64,000 bases of DNA from contig JARKSN010000276.1 in NCBI GenBank assembly GCA_029974275.1, positions 16,009 to 80,008 of the forward strand. Reading direction: 5' to 3'. The stretch is from Candidatus Hydrogenedentota bacterium (GTDB lineage Bacteria > Hydrogenedentota > Hydrogenedentia > Hydrogenedentales > SLHB01). A model generated the notes under the pieces. It was given only the letters and a program-made list of their open reading frames with translations. It made no database searches and was not told where the DNA came from. The translations under genes and the position numbers were made by a program. Positions 32,655 to 44,903 of the stretch are shown one piece after another. Every line of letters starts with the position of its first letter. Position 1 is the stretch's first letter.

Positions 32655-33395
32655 ATGTTTGGAAAAACAAGGACGACCGTTCACGCCCTTGCCTTGGTTT
32701 TGCTATTGACTGTTTGCAGCGGACATGCGTTTGGCTTGCTGTTTACAGGGACAAGCGGAAATCTGGCGGCTTCGGTCGAATTCGAATTGGTGGCAGGCAA
32801 CCTGCAAGTCACGCTGACCAATACGTCCATGGCCGACGTCCTGGTTCCATCGGATGTGCTGACCGGCGTTTTCTTCACGCTGGCCGGCGATCCTGCCTTG
32901 ACATCGCTTTCCGCCGTCCTGACGGCAGGCAGCACCGTGTTTTTCGGAGGGACAGACCCCGGAAACGTGGTGGGCGGCGAATGGGCCTATGCATCAGGCC
33001 TGAACGGGGCGCCTCGGGGCGCGAACCAAGGCATTAGCAGTTCCGGACTAGGCCTGTTTGGCGCGGCCACCTTTCCGGGATCGAATCTGCAAGGGCCCGT
33101 TGCGGTCAACGGCATGCAGTATGGCCTTGTCTCGCTGGGAGATAACCCGGCTACGGGCAATGCTCCGGTGACGGGATCCAACGCCTTCATTCACAACTCG
33201 GCCGTGTTCACGCTGGGCAATTTGCCCACGGACTTTTCACTGCACGATATTTCCAACGTGAGTTTCCAATATGGAACCTCATTGACCGAACCCAATTTCC
33301 CTGGAGATACGCCGGTGGTGCCGGAACCCGCCACCTTTGTGTTGCTGGGCATAGGCATCGCGGCCTTTGCCACACGGCGCACGAGAAAAACATAA
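32655..33395 (+). CDS. PEP-CTERM exosortase-dependent surface protein (possibly XDD4 family)
   Basis: Signal peptide; Gly/Ser/Thr/Asn-rich body; C-terminal VPEPATFVLLGIGIAAFATRRTRK. Confidence 0.92.
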   Translation: MFGKTRTTVHALALVLLLTVCSGHAFGLLFTGTSGNLAASVEFELVAGNLQVTLTNTSMADVLVPSDVLTGVFFTLAGDPALTSLSAVLTAGSTVFFGGTDPGNVVGGEWAYASGLNGAPRGANQGISSSGLGLFGAATFPGSNLQGPVAVNGMQYGLVSLGDNPATGNAPVTGSNAFIHNSAVFTLGNLPTDFSLHDISNVSFQYGTSLTEPNFPGDTPVVPEPATFVLLGIGIAAFATRRTRKT

Positions 33396-36151: not shown

Positions 36152-37186
36152 CTAATGATTGAGCTTGACGGACTTGCCGGTCAGCGCAGACTTTTCCGCC
36201 GCGAGGATGATATCGAGCGATTTTTTCGCGTCTTCGCCTGTGCAAAACGGCGTGGCGCGGCCCAGCGAGGCGAGCACGAAATTGCCGCACGCATTGAGCC
36301 CCCACTCGTCGTCGTCATTGGTTGCGGCCTGAGCCGTCGGAAATTCGATCTCGCATTGCGGGTTCACCAGATACGCCACAACGGGCTTTCCGGGAAACTC
36401 GCACACGCGCAACGTGCCATTGGCGCAATGAAAGATCGTGTAGTTGGCCTCGCACCCCTTCACCGTCCACGAGGCGCACAACGTCCCCATTGTGCCGTCC
36501 GTAAACGTGAAACTGGACACGAAGTTGTCCTCGACGTCCGAGTTTTTCTTTTCGAGGCGGTTCATGTACCCCGAAATCTCCGCCACCTCCTTGCCGGTCA
36601 AAAAACGAATCAGATCGGCCTTATGCACCCCGAGGTCCGCCATCGCGCCAAAACGCGCCTCCTTCTTCTTGAAAAACCACTTGCCCGTCGGACTCCAATT
36701 TTCGGGGCCGGAATGACCGAACATGGAATTCACCACCAGAATCTTGCCCATCAGGCCGCTGTCGAGAACTTCCTTGGCCTTGACGTGAGCCGGAAAGAGA
36801 CGCTGCGTCTGGTCCACCATGAGCAGCTTCTTGGCTTTCTTGGCGGCATCCACCATCTTCTGCGCCTCGACAGAACTCGTAGCCATCGGCTTCTCGACAA
36901 GAACGTGGCAGTCGGCCTTCAACGCCGCGATCGTCGCCGGACCATGCAAATAGTTCGGCGTGCAGATGGAAACGCCATCCAAATCCATCTCTTTCAACAT
37001 CATCGAAAAATCGTGGAATATCTGCGCATCGGGCGCAAACTCCTGCGCCAATGCTCGCGCTTTCACAACGTCGATATCGCAAAATGCGACCACCTCGGCC
37101 TGCGGACAACGCGCGTAATCAGGAACGTGCAGATACTTGGCGATTTGGCCGCACCCAATAATGCCTACCCGGAATTTCTTATCCAT
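36152..37186 (-). CDS. Gfo/Idh/MocA oxidoreductase
   Basis: GIIGCGQIA, CTPNYLH, VLVEKPMA, DLGVH. Confidence 0.92.
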   Translation of the reverse strand: MDKKFRVGIIGCGQIAKYLHVPDYARCPQAEVVAFCDIDVVKARALAQEFAPDAQIFHDFSMMLKEMDLDGVSICTPNYLHGPATIAALKADCHVLVEKPMATSSVEAQKMVDAAKKAKKLLMVDQTQRLFPAHVKAKEVLDSGLMGKILVVNSMFGHSGPENWSPTGKWFFKKKEARFGAMADLGVHKADLIRFLTGKEVAEISGYMNRLEKKNSDVEDNFVSSFTFTDGTMGTLCASWTVKGCEANYTIFHCANGTLRVCEFPGKPVVAYLVNPQCEIEFPTAQAATNDDDEWGLNACGNFVLASLGRATPFCTGEDAKKSLDIILAAEKSALTGKSVKLNH

Positions 37187-37349
37187 GACGATTCCCCTTC
37201 TTGGGCTGTTTCCACGAAAGAACAGACTTCGCTCCGCGAGAGCCGCACGGAGCCACTGACCCATTCACCAAACCTCGAAAGAGCATTCTACCGGCTCATG
37301 TCGAACGGCGCAAATCCTCGAATAGCTGTTTTTTGTCTGGACGCTAATT

Positions 37350-37358
37350 TGTTATACT
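37350..37358 (+). promoter_or_regulatory. Extended -10 promoter element for the small protein / WYL protein operon
   Basis: TGtTATACT in a T-rich intergenic stretch about 45 nt before ATG 37401. Confidence 0.45.
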
Positions 37359-37400
37359 TTGTCCTTTGTGTTTTGTATCGAAATTAAGGATGGGCATGCT

Positions 37401-37607
37401 ATGCAGGGCGTCAAATTGCACGGGGGAATCGCCCTTATTGAGGTGACGGATCCAATGCTGCTGACGGAGATAGAGAGCGATCCGGCGTTGCGGCGTTTTT
37501 TGGGCGAACGGCTGTCGGATCGGTGTGTTGCGGTACAGCCGCAGGCTGTGACGGAGGTGGTCCGGCGGTTGCAGGGAATGGGGCATTTGCCGAGGGTTGT
37601 CGAGTGA
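37401..37607 (+). CDS. Small (68 aa) protein, candidate p8/Tfb5-like fold
   Basis: TAAGGA SD then ATG 37401; stop overlaps next start (GTGA); similar to an internal segment of the downstream protein. Confidence 0.75.
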   Translation: MQGVKLHGGIALIEVTDPMLLTEIESDPALRRFLGERLSDRCVAVQPQAVTEVVRRLQGMGHLPRVVE

Positions 37608-40111
37608 GTCAGCCGTTTACGACAAAGGAATGTCTGCGGGGATATACGAACGAGGCGTTGGGCGCGATCTGCGATCGGTGGCGTTTGGCGGCGCAGAGCA
37701 AGGAGAGCCGCATTCGCGCGATCGAGCATATTTTGCGTGAGCCGTTGCATGTGCAGGCGGCCCTTCAGGAGATGGAGGGGGCGGCGCTGCGGTTGGTGCA
37801 TTTGGTTTGGGGAAGCCATCCTGTGTTTGCGGGGGATGTGTTGGGGGTGCGGGGGCTGTATCAGGCGTCGCATCCGGCCAAGCTTTTGGGCGATCTTGCG
37901 GGGCGGGGTTTTGTGTTGGCATGTCCGCAGGAGCGAGCAGGCGTTTTTTCGCTGGAGGATGTGGCGCGAGAGCATGGGCCTGGGGAGATGGGCCCGTTGT
38001 TGATGGTTCCGGATGCCGTGGGGGAGCAGCTCGCGGTTGCGCCTTCTCCCCCTTTGTCGATAGCGGTTCCGGTGACGGAGGCATCGGCGGAGGGCGCGTC
38101 TTCTCGCGATCGGGCGACGTCGGTTTTTTTGGAGACGCTTCGTGCGGTGGAGGTGTTGTCGCCTCGGGTGACGGCGCAGGGGGAGGTGCACAAGGCTGAT
38201 GAGGCTCGGGCGCTTGAGATGGTGCGGGAGTCTTCCATTTCGGCCGAGGCGTTTAGCCTTGCGTTGATGGAGGCGCGCGAATTGGGCTGCGTCGAGGCGC
38301 GAGAGGGGCGGTTGTGCACGACGGAGCGTGCGAGCGCGTGGACGGAGTTGGGCCGGGCCGATCGCGCCCGTGATTTGTTCCGGGCCTACGTTGCGTCGCC
38401 GGGGTTGTCGGACGTGAAACTGTTCTTTCCGGAGTTGTTTGACGCAATGTGCGAGCGTTTGCCGTTGCATTCGTTGCGGCGGACGTATCACAAGGCGTTG
38501 GCGGCGGCGATTCTTCGCGGGCAGGCGGAGGGGGCGTGGCATCGCATCGCGGATTTCATTCATGCGGCGTACCACATGGACCGCAACGTGTTGTTTTTGG
38601 AAGCGCGGTGGCGCGCGATTCAGTCGCAGGCGCACGATGCGTCGCACGCGTGGCAGGAGCGTTCGTGGCAAACGCATGAGACGCGGTTGTTCTCGTGGAT
38701 GATCACGTCGTTATTGCGGGACCTGGATATGGTGGATATTTCCCGGGGCGGCGAAGCGTTTCGGGTGACTCCCTTGGGCCGTTATGCCTTGGGCGTGGGC
38801 GCGTGCCCGGATGAGGCGGACTTGGTCGATGGACGTGCGCTGGTGGTTCAGCCGGATTTCGAGGTGCTGCTGTACATGGATCGATGCACGCCGGAGCTTC
38901 GGCGCAAGTTGGACACGTTTTGCGAGCGAGTGCGCGGCGGTCCTGTCAGCACGTACAAATTGACGAAGGAGGCGTTGTATCGCGGGGCGCGCTCGAACAT
39001 GTCCGCGGCCGATTTCATGCGGATGTTGGGCCGGTATGCGATGAAGCCCATTCCGGAGAATGTGCATCGGCAGGTTGCGACGTGGGAGCGCCGGCTGGAG
39101 TCGTTGGTGATTCGGAGCCGGTGCGATGTGGCGGAGTATCCGACGCCGCAGGCGGCCAAGCAGGCGGCGGCGATTCCCGGAGCGCGGTTGGTGGGCGATC
39201 GTTTTGTATTGATGACGGAGCCGCCTCGGGAGGTGAGCGTTCGGGTGGACTATCGGCAGCCGTTGCGGCGTTTCATGAGGCCCGAGAAGGGGTTTCAGTT
39301 CCGGGTTCCCTGGGAGAAGAGTCATTTGTTTCTGAGGTCGATGCTGGGCGATATCGCTGATCTTGAGACGGACGCTTCCGGAGGGGTGACGGTGCGACTG
39401 TCGCAACGCAAGATTGGGGCGATGGATGATTGGTCGCTTGTGGCGGCGCAGCTGGAGGCGGTGAGCGAGGAGCCTTTGCCCGCGCGATTCCGTTTGATAA
39501 TCCGGGCGTGGATGGGGGATGTTGAGCCGGCGCTTTCCGGTTCGGCGCCGTTGGTGCGTTTTGTCGATCCGGACGTGTGCGAGAGCGTTTTGGAACTGGC
39601 GGCGACCAAACAGATGGTCGAGGGGCGGTTAGGGTTGTATACGCTTGTGCTGCGCAAAGGGCAGGCGACGTCGTTCCGAAATCTGCTTAAGGAGCATGGC
39701 ATTCGCATGGTGGCCGGGGAGGCGTTTGCCGACACGCAGCCGCCCGAGACGTGGGTAGGGGATTGGGTCCGGCGCCATGGCCATGGACAGGAAATGGAGA
39801 AGACGGCGGGCGGGGACCATCGCGAGGGACGTCATGCGCCCACGCAACCGGATGAGCAGTTGCCGGCGTATTCGCCGCGCATCGTGCGGGAGATTGTCGA
39901 AGAGGCCATAGCCCGTCGGCATGCGATCCTGATTGCGTACCAGTCGGCGTGGGGGCCGACCCCTTCCATTCGGAAGGTCAACCCCGTGTCGCTGGATTTG
40001 ACGAACCGGACGCCGACGGTGAGCGGTTATTGTCACTTGCATGGCGGCGCGCGCAGTTTCAAGCTTTCGCAAATTACGGGCATTCGCGTTTTGGAGGATG
40101 AAACGTTCTGA
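37604..40111 (+). CDS. Helicase-associated (XPB N-terminal / Helicase_C_3-like) domain protein with C-terminal WYL domain; no helicase motor motifs
   Basis: LVVQPDFEV...YKLTKEALYRG...PIPENVHRQVATW; C-terminal EAIARRHAILIAY...RKVNP...GYCHLHGGARSFKLSQI (WYL). Confidence 0.85.
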   Translation: MSQPFTTKECLRGYTNEALGAICDRWRLAAQSKESRIRAIEHILREPLHVQAALQEMEGAALRLVHLVWGSHPVFAGDVLGVRGLYQASHPAKLLGDLAGRGFVLACPQERAGVFSLEDVAREHGPGEMGPLLMVPDAVGEQLAVAPSPPLSIAVPVTEASAEGASSRDRATSVFLETLRAVEVLSPRVTAQGEVHKADEARALEMVRESSISAEAFSLALMEARELGCVEAREGRLCTTERASAWTELGRADRARDLFRAYVASPGLSDVKLFFPELFDAMCERLPLHSLRRTYHKALAAAILRGQAEGAWHRIADFIHAAYHMDRNVLFLEARWRAIQSQAHDASHAWQERSWQTHETRLFSWMITSLLRDLDMVDISRGGEAFRVTPLGRYALGVGACPDEADLVDGRALVVQPDFEVLLYMDRCTPELRRKLDTFCERVRGGPVSTYKLTKEALYRGARSNMSAADFMRMLGRYAMKPIPENVHRQVATWERRLESLVIRSRCDVAEYPTPQAAKQAAAIPGARLVGDRFVLMTEPPREVSVRVDYRQPLRRFMRPEKGFQFRVPWEKSHLFLRSMLGDIADLETDASGGVTVRLSQRKIGAMDDWSLVAAQLEAVSEEPLPARFRLIIRAWMGDVEPALSGSAPLVRFVDPDVCESVLELAATKQMVEGRLGLYTLVLRKGQATSFRNLLKEHGIRMVAGEAFADTQPPETWVGDWVRRHGHGQEMEKTAGGDHREGRHAPTQPDEQLPAYSPRIVREIVEEAIARRHAILIAYQSAWGPTPSIRKVNPVSLDLTNRTPTVSGYCHLHGGARSFKLSQITGIRVLEDETF

Positions 40112-40122
40112 GCGTTTTTGCT

Positions 40123-41736
40123 TCATCGATGGCGCTGCCGGTGCAGGGACAGCGGCTCGAGGAGGAAAGGGTACACAGGGAGCGAGGCGATGGCGATGAG
40201 CACAAGCGCACTAGCAAGGAGCAAGGCAACGTCGGCATGCCGCGAACCAGACAGGAAGGGCGCGTAGCGCGCCGCAACAAACGCCAATCCGGCCCAGAGC
40301 GCGCAATACAGCCCCACGCTCGTGCGCGAGCATAAGCCCCGCCGCACGCCTGCACGGGCAAGGAACAAGAGACCGGCTGTTGGCACGCAAAAAATCACGC
40401 ACGCCAGCGAAAGCCCGATGACGGAAACGATGGGCGGGTAGTCTATTGTTATCCCGACAATCGCCATTGGCAAGCCAATCGTAGCCGCGGCGATAACGAA
40501 GGCGCCGCTCGACATCAATGCCCAGCAGCCACATACGTATGCGAACGCAAGCGCCATCACGGACATTGCATACATGAGGGCGAGGTCCTGCAACCAATAG
40601 TGTATGGAGGGCCCCTTGACCCCGACGGCCGCGCCAATCAGGTGAAGCAGAAGCACGTACACCGCCACTGCCGCAACCAAAACGCCTATGCTCACGAGTA
40701 AGGCTTTGGCCGCTGCAAGGAGCCGTATACGGGCAAGCGTTCGCGTGGGGATGGGACGCGTGAAGACAAAGACGTTTTGGGCCGAGGGGCGAATCCATTT
40801 TTCCTGGACACTGAGCGCGCTCCAGACGAATAGGGCCGTGGGCAATCCCCAAATAGCCCCGAGGAAAACCCCCATGAACGACATGACCTGCAGCAGGCTG
40901 GACGGCTCTACTCCGGCGATGGTTCCGAATGCGGGCGCCACCAGCAAGGCAAAGAAGCCGAAAAAGAGCAGCGTGATCTTCGGCAACCAACCATAGCGCG
41001 TGCGCCACTCGTACCAGCCTTGCGCATGTTCCGGCGAAGCGAAAGCCATGGGCGCGCGGAACAGGGACAGGTTGATCTCCTTCGACTGAAGACGACGTCC
41101 GCTCCGTTCACGCAGTACGGCGGGTAGGCCGATCAAATAGCCCGCGAGAACCGCGCACAGCATCATCGCAAGCTGCTGCGGCGCGGACGCTTCGGCAAAC
41201 CCTACAACAATTCCAGCGACAACCTCGCGCACAAAAGGAAATGGCGCGCACACGACCATGACAACCGCCGCCGCCACGGCCCCGTTGCGCCACCACGCAA
41301 TGCCCTGGACCAACGCGAACAACGACGTGAACACGAACGGCGATAGAAGCCACGATGTTGTAGCATTAGCGTGCCGATCAACAGCAAAGGCGACGCCAAC
41401 CGTCAAAAATAGGGCAAGCGCGACGATGGCGACGCGGCCAAGATATTCGATCGCGGCCAGGCGGGCCGTGCGTAGCGGCAGTGCAAATAACGCCCACGGA
41501 AACGCAAGGGATCGTTCCCCAACGTCCGCGCCGTTGGACAAGGTCATCGCCATCAATACCAGCATGCTCATGACCAGCGCAACGCCCGTAAAACCGCCGT
41601 ATTCGTGATACTTGATCCAGGAATGAACGGCACATTCGCAAACAAACACGGCGGGCGTCCCCATAACGACCGCCAAGAACGGCCACCGCAACATCCGCCA
41701 TTGCCGCCAGAGAAGCGCTTGAGTCGGTGTACGCAT
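40123..41736 (-). CDS. Polytopic membrane protein, probable ABC exporter permease (two repeats)
   Basis: ALLWRQWR...LFALPLRTARLA, repeated as WYEWR...FTRPIPTRTLA; downstream of ABC ATPase. Confidence 0.7.
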   Translation of the reverse strand: MRTPTQALLWRQWRMLRWPFLAVVMGTPAVFVCECAVHSWIKYHEYGGFTGVALVMSMLVLMAMTLSNGADVGERSLAFPWALFALPLRTARLAAIEYLGRVAIVALALFLTVGVAFAVDRHANATTSWLLSPFVFTSLFALVQGIAWWRNGAVAAAVVMVVCAPFPFVREVVAGIVVGFAEASAPQQLAMMLCAVLAGYLIGLPAVLRERSGRRLQSKEINLSLFRAPMAFASPEHAQGWYEWRTRYGWLPKITLLFFGFFALLVAPAFGTIAGVEPSSLLQVMSFMGVFLGAIWGLPTALFVWSALSVQEKWIRPSAQNVFVFTRPIPTRTLARIRLLAAAKALLVSIGVLVAAVAVYVLLLHLIGAAVGVKGPSIHYWLQDLALMYAMSVMALAFAYVCGCWALMSSGAFVIAAATIGLPMAIVGITIDYPPIVSVIGLSLACVIFCVPTAGLLFLARAGVRRGLCSRTSVGLYCALWAGLAFVAARYAPFLSGSRHADVALLLASALVLIAIASLPVYPFLLEPLSLHRQRHR

Positions 41737-43393: not shown

Positions 43394-44104
43394 TCAGACG
43401 ATCGCCAGGAAGACGATGAGTTCGAGTTCGATGATGAGGTGCGCCGTAAAAGGCAGGAGAGCGTTGCGGCGGGCGATGGCCCAAGGGGTCAGCGCCAAGC
43501 TGAATGCCAACATGGCGAGCGTCTCGGGCCAGGGCTTTTGGAGGTGGTAGATGGTTTCGCTGACGGGAATGATCAGCCAACCCCAACGCGGCAAAACGGC
43601 CAATGCGCGTCGCGCCATCCAATAGCGATGCATGAATTCCCAGCCTGCAAGCCAGGAGAGAGTCCACAACAATGTCGAACCTGCCAGGAGCAGGCGATCG
43701 CTCAAGGGGAACTGGCCCCAACTCGGATAGATGGCGCGCAGGCCGGGCGTCACGGCTACAACCATCATCGCGGCGATGCCGCCGACCAGCGCCACGCCCA
43801 ACACGATGAAGTCGACGCGTCGCCAACCGTGGAACGTGAACCACGACCGGTCGAGATCTCTCGCGCAAAAAAGAAGCGGCAGGAGAAACCAGGCAATGAA
43901 CTTAAAGAGGTCGAACCTGCCAATGTGCCACCGAAACGCCTGCCATTCGACGAGAAAATGCACGTGCCAAGCGGCCAGCGTGTCGATCGCCAATACAACC
44001 GCTACGTAGACCGCGGCGAACATGAAGGATGCAAGGGGGGCATGGATCGTCTTGGCGATCGCTGCGCCGGCGGGCTCTGGGGGGAGGTCGTTCATGCGCT
44101 TCAC
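43394..44104 (-). CDS. CPBP (Abi/CAAX protease) family intramembrane protein
   Basis: Multiple TM segments; WEFMHRY, HLQKPWPE, AHLIIE; GTG start overlaps nth stop (ATG 44095 alternative). Confidence 0.7.
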   Translation of the reverse strand: MKRMNDLPPEPAGAAIAKTIHAPLASFMFAAVYVAVVLAIDTLAAWHVHFLVEWQAFRWHIGRFDLFKFIAWFLLPLLFCARDLDRSWFTFHGWRRVDFIVLGVALVGGIAAMMVVAVTPGLRAIYPSWGQFPLSDRLLLAGSTLLWTLSWLAGWEFMHRYWMARRALAVLPRWGWLIIPVSETIYHLQKPWPETLAMLAFSLALTPWAIARRNALLPFTAHLIIELELIVFLAIV

Positions 44105-44778
44105 TTCCCGATTCTCTTGCCTTCTTTTGTCTCGGGAAAGGGGCACAACTCACGCACGGGACACTGCGAACATTGGGGGGCGCGCGCGGTGCACAGGTCG
44201 CGTCCGTGAAAAACGGTCAGATGCGACCATAGACTCCATTTCTCTTGCGGCCATATCTTCATCAGGTCTAGCTCAATCTTTTTCGGGTCTTTGCTTTTTG
44301 TAAATCCGAGCCGTCGCGTGATGCGCATGCAATGCGTATCCACTACGACTCCCGGCGTGTTGAAACAGGCGCCGAGGAGAACGTTGGCTGTCTTGCGGCC
44401 CACGCCGTCGAGCTGCAGCAGTTCGTCCATGGTCTGCGGGACTTTGCCGCCGAATCTCTCGAGGATAGTCGCGCAGGCGCCGCGGATGTTTTTCGCTTTC
44501 ATCCGGTAGAATCCACAACGACGAATAACCTCTTCGAGCGCGCCTTCCGGCGCGCGGACATAGTCCTCCGGCGTGAGGTATTTGCGGAATAACGCGGGCG
44601 TGACTTGGTTCACGCGCGCGTCGGTGCACTGCGCGGCGAGGATTGTCGCGACAAGCAGTTGAAGCGGATCGCGATGGTCCAACGAGCATTGCGCGCCGGG
44701 ATAGCGCGCCACGAGTCGCATGAAGACCTCGGCGGCGCGCGTTTGGGCCGCCGTCAAGGCCGGCGGAGTTTTTGCCAT
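44101..44778 (-). CDS. nth: Endonuclease III
   Basis: LLVATILAAQCTDARVN, LDGVGRKTANV, VDTH, C-x6-C-x2-C-x5-C cluster. Confidence 0.96.
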   Translation of the reverse strand: MAKTPPALTAAQTRAAEVFMRLVARYPGAQCSLDHRDPLQLLVATILAAQCTDARVNQVTPALFRKYLTPEDYVRAPEGALEEVIRRCGFYRMKAKNIRGACATILERFGGKVPQTMDELLQLDGVGRKTANVLLGACFNTPGVVVDTHCMRITRRLGFTKSKDPKKIELDLMKIWPQEKWSLWSHLTVFHGRDLCTARAPQCSQCPVRELCPFPETKEGKRIGK

Positions 44779-44903
44779 TTCATGCGTTCCTTTGTCGGAG
44801 GCCGATTTGGTGCAAGGGATTGCGCGCGCGCCGAGGGACATTGCGCCGCCTCGGACTTTTCAGGCGCGGCGCCAAGGCTCGATGTCTCCTTTTTGCGTGA
44901 CGG

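Follow-up and report, generated by a model that had tools for sequence, protein, structure and literature searches.

A bacterial gene pair related to p8/Tfb5 and p52/Tfb2 of TFIIH, with a C-terminal WYL domain, as candidate partners of XPB

A 64,000-nucleotide stretch of the genome of a Candidatus Hydrogenedentota bacterium (contig JARKSN010000276.1, positions 16,009 to 80,008 of the forward strand; the whole stretch is referred to here as the window) contains a two-gene unit that encodes a small protein of 68 amino acids (aa) and a large protein of 835 aa. This operon probably encodes bacterial homologues of p8/Tfb5 and p52/Tfb2 that act as partners of XPB, with a WYL domain at the end of the large protein serving as a control linked to single-stranded DNA (ssDNA). 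The reference for this comparison is the corresponding sub-module of TFIIH, consisting of ERCC3, GTF2H4 and GTF2H5 in human and of Ssl2, Tfb2 and Tfb5 in yeast (PDB 6TRS, 3DOM and 6NMI). The two genes and the regions of the large protein are as follows.

37401..37607, + strand: small gene, 68 aa, predicted Tfb5/p8 homologue, beta-alpha-beta-beta-alpha with a short C-terminal strand
37604..40111, + strand: large gene, 835 aa, p52/Tfb2 homologue that ends in a WYL domain; starts at a GTG within GTGA
37718..38803, + strand: region that aligns to the N-terminal and MD1 domains of p52, residues 39-400
38819..39115, + strand: clutch (p52 MD2 or XPB N-terminal-domain fold; Pfam Helicase_C_3), residues 406-504
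39116..39508, + strand: alpha/beta insert between the clutch and the C-terminal domain, residues 505-635 (secondary structure from the AlphaFold2 model)
39509..39706, + strand: p8-like C-terminal domain, counterpart of the p52 C-terminal domain, residues 636-701 (hhalign with the small-family profile)
39779..39853, + strand: low-confidence linker, residues 726-750 (predicted local distance difference test score, pLDDT, below 50)
39869..40108, + strand: WYL domain, residues 756-835

The large protein is homologous to p52/Tfb2 and has, in addition, a WYL domain at its C-terminus. Its AlphaFold2 (AF2) model, built from an alignment of 59 family sequences, has a pLDDT of 87.8 and an N-terminal half that is mostly helical. 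When this model was compared with the PDB by Foldseek, the best 18 matches were entries of TFIIH complexes (E 3.5e-10 to 1.5e-5), with p52/Tfb2 as the top matches; the matches include the p52-p8 crystal structure (6trs_B, E 5e-8), and the WYL proteins PafBC, CapW, BrxR and DriD rank after the TFIIH entries. The domains follow the order of the Chaetomium p52 structure, namely the N-terminal domain (NTD), MD1, MD2 (the clutch) and the C-terminal domain (CTD). Excerpts of two papers describe the same layout for p52, with an MD2 clutch that has the fold of the XPB N-terminal domain (PMC7708078; PMC6422496) and a CTD that has the p8 fold and dimerises with p8 (PMC6422496; PMC7708078).

The clutch of the large protein is matched by Pfam Helicase_C_3 at residues 413-504 (nucleotides 38840-39115; E 1.7e-16). 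It has the fold of the XPB N-terminal domain and is homologous to residues 28-114 of the XPB encoded in the same genome (hhalign probability 94). The NCBIfam XPB equivalog NF045503 is matched over only its first 99 of 548 positions, with 29 bits against a cut-off of 610. Judged by its sequence, the large protein is not itself an XPB helicase, for which a superfamily 2 (SF2) core, a Walker A motif and a DExH motif are expected. The first-pass annotation, made from the letters without database searches, had already described the long helical N-half, an XPB-N-terminal-type domain at about 38840-39100, a C-terminal WYL domain and the p52 domain order, and the present results agree with it on each of these. 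Its further remark that neither Walker A nor DExH occurs is correct for Walker A, which is missing along with any helicase-core Pfam domain, although a literal DEAD string is found at residues 403-406, where the consensus of the 59 sequences has no majority residue.

The C-terminal WYL domain is recognized by Pfam (PF13280) at residues 764-829 (E 1.6e-11), with a score above the gathering threshold, and the WYL fold is present in the model. Six residues of this domain (R772, R790, R817, R828, Y779 and F819) are invariant in the 59-sequence family. Two of the WYL structures matched, CapW 9c5g and DriD 7tzv, are ssDNA-bound according to their entry titles. The insert at residues 505-635 is missing from the Helicase_C_3 proteins of 618-793 aa described below, in which a p8-like domain directly follows the clutch, and the p8-like domain is the last one in a Roseiflexaceae orthologue that lacks the WYL domain. 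At the level of sequence families, Pfam Tfb2 (PF03849) gives sub-threshold matches in 16 of the 59 family members (best E 2.5e-4), which makes it the third most frequent family; a phmmer search of the PDB with the large protein gave no match.

The small protein is, as far as profile comparison can tell, a Tfb5/p8 homologue whose relationship becomes detectable once its family is widened. A profile search of 1.84 billion representatives yielded 285 representative clusters at E<=1e-3. Among the 150 listed of these 285, free-standing proteins of 55-115 aa account for 108 and longer proteins of 618-793 aa for 18; in all 18 of the latter the p8-like domain forms the extreme C-terminus, with Helicase_C_3 immediately before it (18/18). 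In the PDB, the top five sequences for a profile built from 109 small-family proteins (A4) are yeast Tfb5 (E 2.7e-4 to 4e-4, Tfb5 residues 6-56); human and Chaetomium p8 are not among the PDB sequence matches of this profile. The small protein is of the expected size of about 70 aa, and its beta-alpha-beta-beta-alpha fold can be superposed on Tfb5/p8. A Foldseek search with the small protein found no match at E<=1e-3, with polyketide acyltransferase subdomains at the top. The two small-family clusters that bear an organism name are from Chloroflexota/Chloroflexi, and for the three best-matching clusters in the atlas the commonest phylum is Chloroflexota or Planctomycetota.

The A4 profile also aligns with residues 636-701 of the large family (hhalign probability 90, E 1.6e-6). 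With the narrow alignment of the small protein, the best match falls in the same region but is weak (small residues 10-62 against large residues 648-700, E 0.012, probability 3.6). The small protein therefore relates to the 636-701 domain of its partner as p8 relates to the p52 CTD. Pfam Helicase_C_3 is matched by eight of the 109 A4 members, and its last third overlaps the p8-like domain. These comparisons bear out what had been proposed from the letters alone, that the small protein fits a p8 pattern, that a segment of the large protein (about 39545-39705) resembles it, and that p8 and p52 similarity exists at all. The accompanying view of a free-standing p8-like partner as the unusual part has to be abandoned, as such proteins are not rare in the widened family.

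As a side observation, five of the 18 long p52-like proteins also have an N-terminal SWIM zinc finger and one has a SAP domain, which are different DNA-binding add-ons standing in place of the WYL domain (SWIM- or SAP-bearing proteins: P0227, P0252, P0262, P0267, P0268 and P0253).

Translational coupling of the two genes is conserved. In the window, the stop codon of the small gene overlaps the GTG start of the large gene in the string GTGA at 37604, and the open reading frames (ORFs) at 37401-37607 and 37604-40111 agree with the two-gene unit originally reported. Thirty-six related loci were taken from species-representative genomes for a survey of gene order. The small gene lies immediately 5' of the large gene in 29 of the 29 Hydrogenedentota-type loci that contain the 5' end of the large gene, and it is likewise directly upstream in the Roseiflexaceae locus (L040). 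Of 31 junctions, the window included, 27 retain an overlap of stop and start (26 with a 4-nucleotide NTGA and one of a single nucleotide), while the remaining four have gaps of 4-46 nucleotides. Compared with the 29 loci, the small ORF diverges by 0.28 at codon position 1, 0.14 at position 2 and 0.59 at position 3, which is the pattern of a translated gene and settles an early concern that this ORF might be neither conserved nor coding.

The large protein has 64 database relatives at E<=1e-3, 63 of them with strong matches (E<=5e-169), and both Pfam PF13625 and PF13280 are present in nearly all; those with an organism name belong to Candidatus Hydrogenedentes/Hydrogenedentota. The small protein has 57 database relatives, itself included, and shows far stronger conservation than its partner (58-80% versus 36-59% identity among relatives). 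Of the 135 genomes of the phylum, 36 have the 835-aa form: 35 of the 54 in the family to which the window belongs and one in another family. A defence-system reading was rejected, as PADLOC returned WYL-domain models only and no defence genes are found among the ORFs beside the pair. The pair was not found in a tblastn search of phages, and matches in plasmids were limited to two non-mobilizable Deinococcus megaplasmids.

A single XPB is encoded in this genome (G000:C110; L007 8330-10081, - strand; profile match, 865 bits against a cut-off of 610), on a contig other than that of the pair, in accord with the first-pass annotation, whose proposal depended on an XPB-type helicase elsewhere in the genome. 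XPB is present in 121 of the 135 genomes of the phylum and in 35 of the 36 that bear the pair, the exception being a genome that is 80% complete. These genomes are kin, so the co-occurrence of XPB and the pair is weak evidence. Two helicase-nuclease genes, one addB-like (1051 aa) and one addA-like (1149 aa), directly follow XPB on its strand (L007 1760-10081, -), which suggests that XPB is co-transcribed with genes for processing the ends of double-strand breaks. An ORF of 212 aa shares 4 nucleotides with the start of XPB (L007 10078-10716, -); it has no Pfam family, no relative in the atlas and low atlas recognition. It shows no similarity to the large family, was set aside as a relative, and may not be a gene.

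In contrast to the unlinked arrangement in this phylum, the orthologous pair lies directly downstream of XPB in Deinococcus. In two of two complete Deinococcus megaplasmid records (NZ_CP097153.1 and NZ_CP115166.1), the gene order is XPB, small, large. The small proteins (99 or 115 aa) are annotated as 'hypothetical protein' and the large ones (811 or 805 aa) as 'helicase-associated domain-containing protein', and the two genes overlap by 4 nucleotides. The Deinococcus small proteins match A4 with probabilities of 99.1 and 98.7, and the large protein of the first record aligns to the window's family over columns 34-827 of 837 (probability 99.5). In a Paenibacillaceae locus, a p52-like gene overlaps the end of XPB and no small gene is present. 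Since the pair and XPB are unlinked in the genome studied here, the connection to XPB in this organism rests on homology and on the Deinococcus context.

The genome also encodes a second p52-like paralogue of 610 aa (G000:C155; L044 6713-8545, -), located upstream of murB, with Helicase_C_3 at residues 462-578 and no WYL domain. Relatives of this protein, matching columns ~297-525 of the large-family alignment, are found in most, if not nearly all, of the 135 genomes. Its last 55 residues match the p8 profile at the expected place, though weakly (probability 6, E 0.006). The 610-aa paralogue may be the constitutive partner of XPB, and the WYL-bearing pair a conditional one. Three p52-like proteins that end in a p8-like domain are found in a Roseiflexaceae genome (G135); one of them, of 634 aa, is directly upstream of recO (L046 432-3165).

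In this genome, the XPB profile finds an XPB N-terminal domain only in XPB and in the large protein, to which Pfam Helicase_C_3 adds the 610-aa paralogue. XPB itself is the second-best genome match of the A4 hidden Markov model (E 0.1), and its residues 134-186, right after the N-terminal domain, match the p8-family profile (hhalign probability 67, E 5.2e-5). This p8-like stretch suggests that XPB and p52 contain copies of one clutch-plus-p8 cassette that was duplicated. The 125 positions of Pfam Helicase_C_3 seem to cover the clutch and the start of the second, p8-like domain.

Several observations weigh against the reading of the pair as XPB partners. The small protein matches no Pfam, NCBIfam or PADLOC family, and a narrow profile of 44 small-protein sequences gave chance-level matches in the PDB, without Tfb5 among them. 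In fold searches with the small protein, unrelated ferredoxin-like domains tie with Tfb5. Pfam Tfb5 (PF06331) is matched by only three of the 109 family members (best E 0.068) and by the window's small protein not at all; Pfam Tfb2 is not matched by the window's large protein at E<=10, and its gathering score is not reached. VIA assigns the p52 CTD, with which p52 ends, to residues 505-544 immediately behind the clutch, rather than to residues 636-701 as the sequence profiles do, so that some doubt remains about which segment is equivalent to the p52 CTD. In the first Deinococcus record, the large protein does not match Pfam WYL at E<=0.01. The pair and XPB never share a contig in Hydrogenedentota (0 of 35 genomes with both), and since XPB is near-universal in the phylum and the pair is present in 36 of the 135 genomes, XPB does not need the pair. 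Finally, the phylum-wide 610-aa paralogue could be the real partner of XPB.

From the homologies, the domain order, the coupling, the single XPB and the adjacency in Deinococcus, all of which were computed, we infer that the two proteins may bind and activate XPB and that the WYL domain may subject them to ssDNA control. In such a mechanism, the small protein would pair through a beta-sheet with the p8-like domain of the large protein (residues 636-701), while the clutch (406-504) and the XPB N-terminal domain would form a pseudo-symmetric dimer. The small and large proteins would jointly cradle the second RecA lobe of XPB and set its ATPase rate; in TFIIH, p52/p8 both activates and limits the XPB ATPase, according to excerpts of PMC7708078. 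The WYL domain, on its flexible linker (726-750), would bind ssDNA or another ligand, and this binding could recruit the XPB complex to unwound or damaged DNA or switch it there.

The best-surviving alternative, which we nevertheless consider unlikely, is that the pair acts without XPB, its clutch pairing with that of the 610-aa paralogue or with some other protein, as a scaffold for a different DNA transaction. The separation of the pair from XPB in every Hydrogenedentota genome is consistent with this, as are the patchy distribution of the pair compared with that of XPB and the presence of several p52-like paralogues per genome, two here and three in Roseiflexaceae, including the one beside recO. 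An XPB-independent role is harder to reconcile with a domain that the XPB profile finds only in XPB and the large protein (the 610-aa paralogue being added by Helicase_C_3), with the position of the pair directly after XPB in Deinococcus, and with the overlap of a p52-like gene with the XPB end in Paenibacillaceae.

A second alternative, likewise improbable and ranked after the first, makes the large protein a transcription regulator of the WYL type, comparable to PafBC, DriD, BrxR or CapW, with winged-helix-like domains of its N-half on promoter DNA, a WYL domain that senses an ssDNA or nucleotide signal, the small protein as an accessory and XPB uninvolved. The matches of the WYL domain are indeed PafBC, BrxR, CapW and DriD, and PDB titles call BrxR and DriD transcription regulators and PafBC a transcriptional activator. 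Furthermore, the most N-terminal p52 domain is described as a winged helix in excerpts of PMC6422496, and weak MarR_2 matches occur in two of the 59 large-family members (best E 0.041). However, no helix-turn-helix (HTH) family is detected by Pfam in the window's large protein at E<=1, and the domain order differs from that of the regulators, with the WYL domain coming last, after a disordered linker. The large protein also aligns to p52 along its length and keeps an XPB-type clutch, and an orthologous pair lies within the XPB operon in Deinococcus. Least probable of all is a role as a brake or decoy that competes with a constitutive 610-aa partner and holds XPB inactive until the WYL domain meets ssDNA: excerpts of PMC7708078 describe p52/p8 as a 'speed limiter' that caps the DNA-stimulated ATPase in TFIIH, and two p52-like paralogues accompany one XPB here, but nothing in the Deinococcus operon context points to a second partner, although no search was aimed at one.

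The reading of the pair as XPB partners can be extended to a broader proposal, which we put forward tentatively. Bacteria might possess a full XPB-p52-p8 translocase module assembled from a single cassette of a clutch-type and a p8-type dimerisation domain, placed at the N-terminus of XPB and at the C-terminus of p52-like proteins, with its second half free-standing as p8. The lower lobe of TFIIH would then be an old prokaryotic rather than a eukaryotic invention, and the WYL domain would make the module answer to ssDNA in this lineage.

The unit is flanked on both sides by genes on the opposite strand, according to the ORF list of the window. An extended -10-like string lies upstream of the small gene, as had been reported, together with a Shine-Dalgarno-like string, but a two-hexamer scan of 37150-40350 called no promoter or sigma-70-type site; a promoter belonging to the unit itself is accordingly only putative.

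37350..37358, + strand: TGTTATACT, putative extended -10-like string, 43 nucleotides 5' of the small gene ATG (read from the sequence)
37386..37390, + strand: AAGGA, Shine-Dalgarno-like string, 10 nucleotides 5' of the small gene ATG (from the letters only)
36152-37264, opposite strand: upstream neighbouring ORF (ORF list)
40123-41736, opposite strand: downstream neighbouring ORF with a largely hydrophobic translation (ORF list)

Two other ORFs of the window were noted from their translations. The ORF at 32655-33395 (+) has a PEP-CTERM-like end, consisting of VPEP, a hydrophobic stretch and basic residues. The ORF at 44101-44841 (-), 4 kb downstream of the pair and on the opposite strand, resembles endonuclease III (Nth) by eye.

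The role of bacterial and archaeal XPB is still described as elusive in excerpts of a 2026 review (PMC13024598), and a 2012 paper reported that the TFIIH partners of XPB were not found in bacteria. Our full-text literature searches found no description of bacterial p52 or p8 homologues, although subscription journals were thinly covered and an earlier description is possible; the excerpted parts of PMC6222260 hold nothing on p52 or p8. These searches also returned no published function for the XPB-side Helicase_C_3 proteins of Deinococcus. The conserved p52-like protein and the Tfb5 relative are thus candidate partners for bacterial XPB, and the WYL domain leads to a concrete hypothesis, the ssDNA-gated control of a DNA translocase. 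The finding bears on the origin of the XPB-p52-p8 part of TFIIH. As the three genes are in one operon in two cultured Deinococcus strains, Deinococcus aquaticus PB-314 and Deinococcus sp. QL22, genetic testing is possible.

Among known systems, the closest is the XPB-p52-p8 sub-module of TFIIH. The alignment of the large protein to p52 runs from the N-terminal domain up to and including the clutch, which has the fold of the XPB N-terminal domain. An XPB is encoded in the genome, and a domain of about 65 aa has a free-standing homologue of about 70 aa that is in turn predicted to be homologous to Tfb5. The large protein differs from p52 in its length (835 aa versus 428-452 residues in the matched human p52 chains), in the 130-aa insert between clutch and CTD and in the added C-terminal WYL domain. 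Further differences are the lack of linkage between the pair and XPB in this phylum, the existence of a second p52-like paralogue, and a sequence similarity of the window's proteins that is below the Pfam thresholds for Tfb2 and Tfb5.

The WYL regulators PafBC, DriD, BrxR and CapW combine an N-terminal winged HTH domain with a WYL domain and act on transcription, whereas here the WYL domain is carried by a p52-like scaffold in which no HTH was detected. In archaea, excerpts of PMC13024598 describe a prokaryotic XPB with a dedicated partner, Bax1, that modulates its ATPase. Bax1, however, is described there as an XPG-related nuclease that binds the thumb and HD2, while the pair has no nuclease domain and is p52/p8-like. 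The XPB-side Helicase_C_3 proteins of Deinococcus, which have no helicase core, share with the window the small-large order and the 4-nucleotide overlap; they differ in that the pair directly follows XPB and is annotated only generically. Particular to the window are the location of the pair apart from XPB, the WYL fusion, the coexistence of a second paralogue and the tie, at the level of sequence, of the small family to Tfb5.

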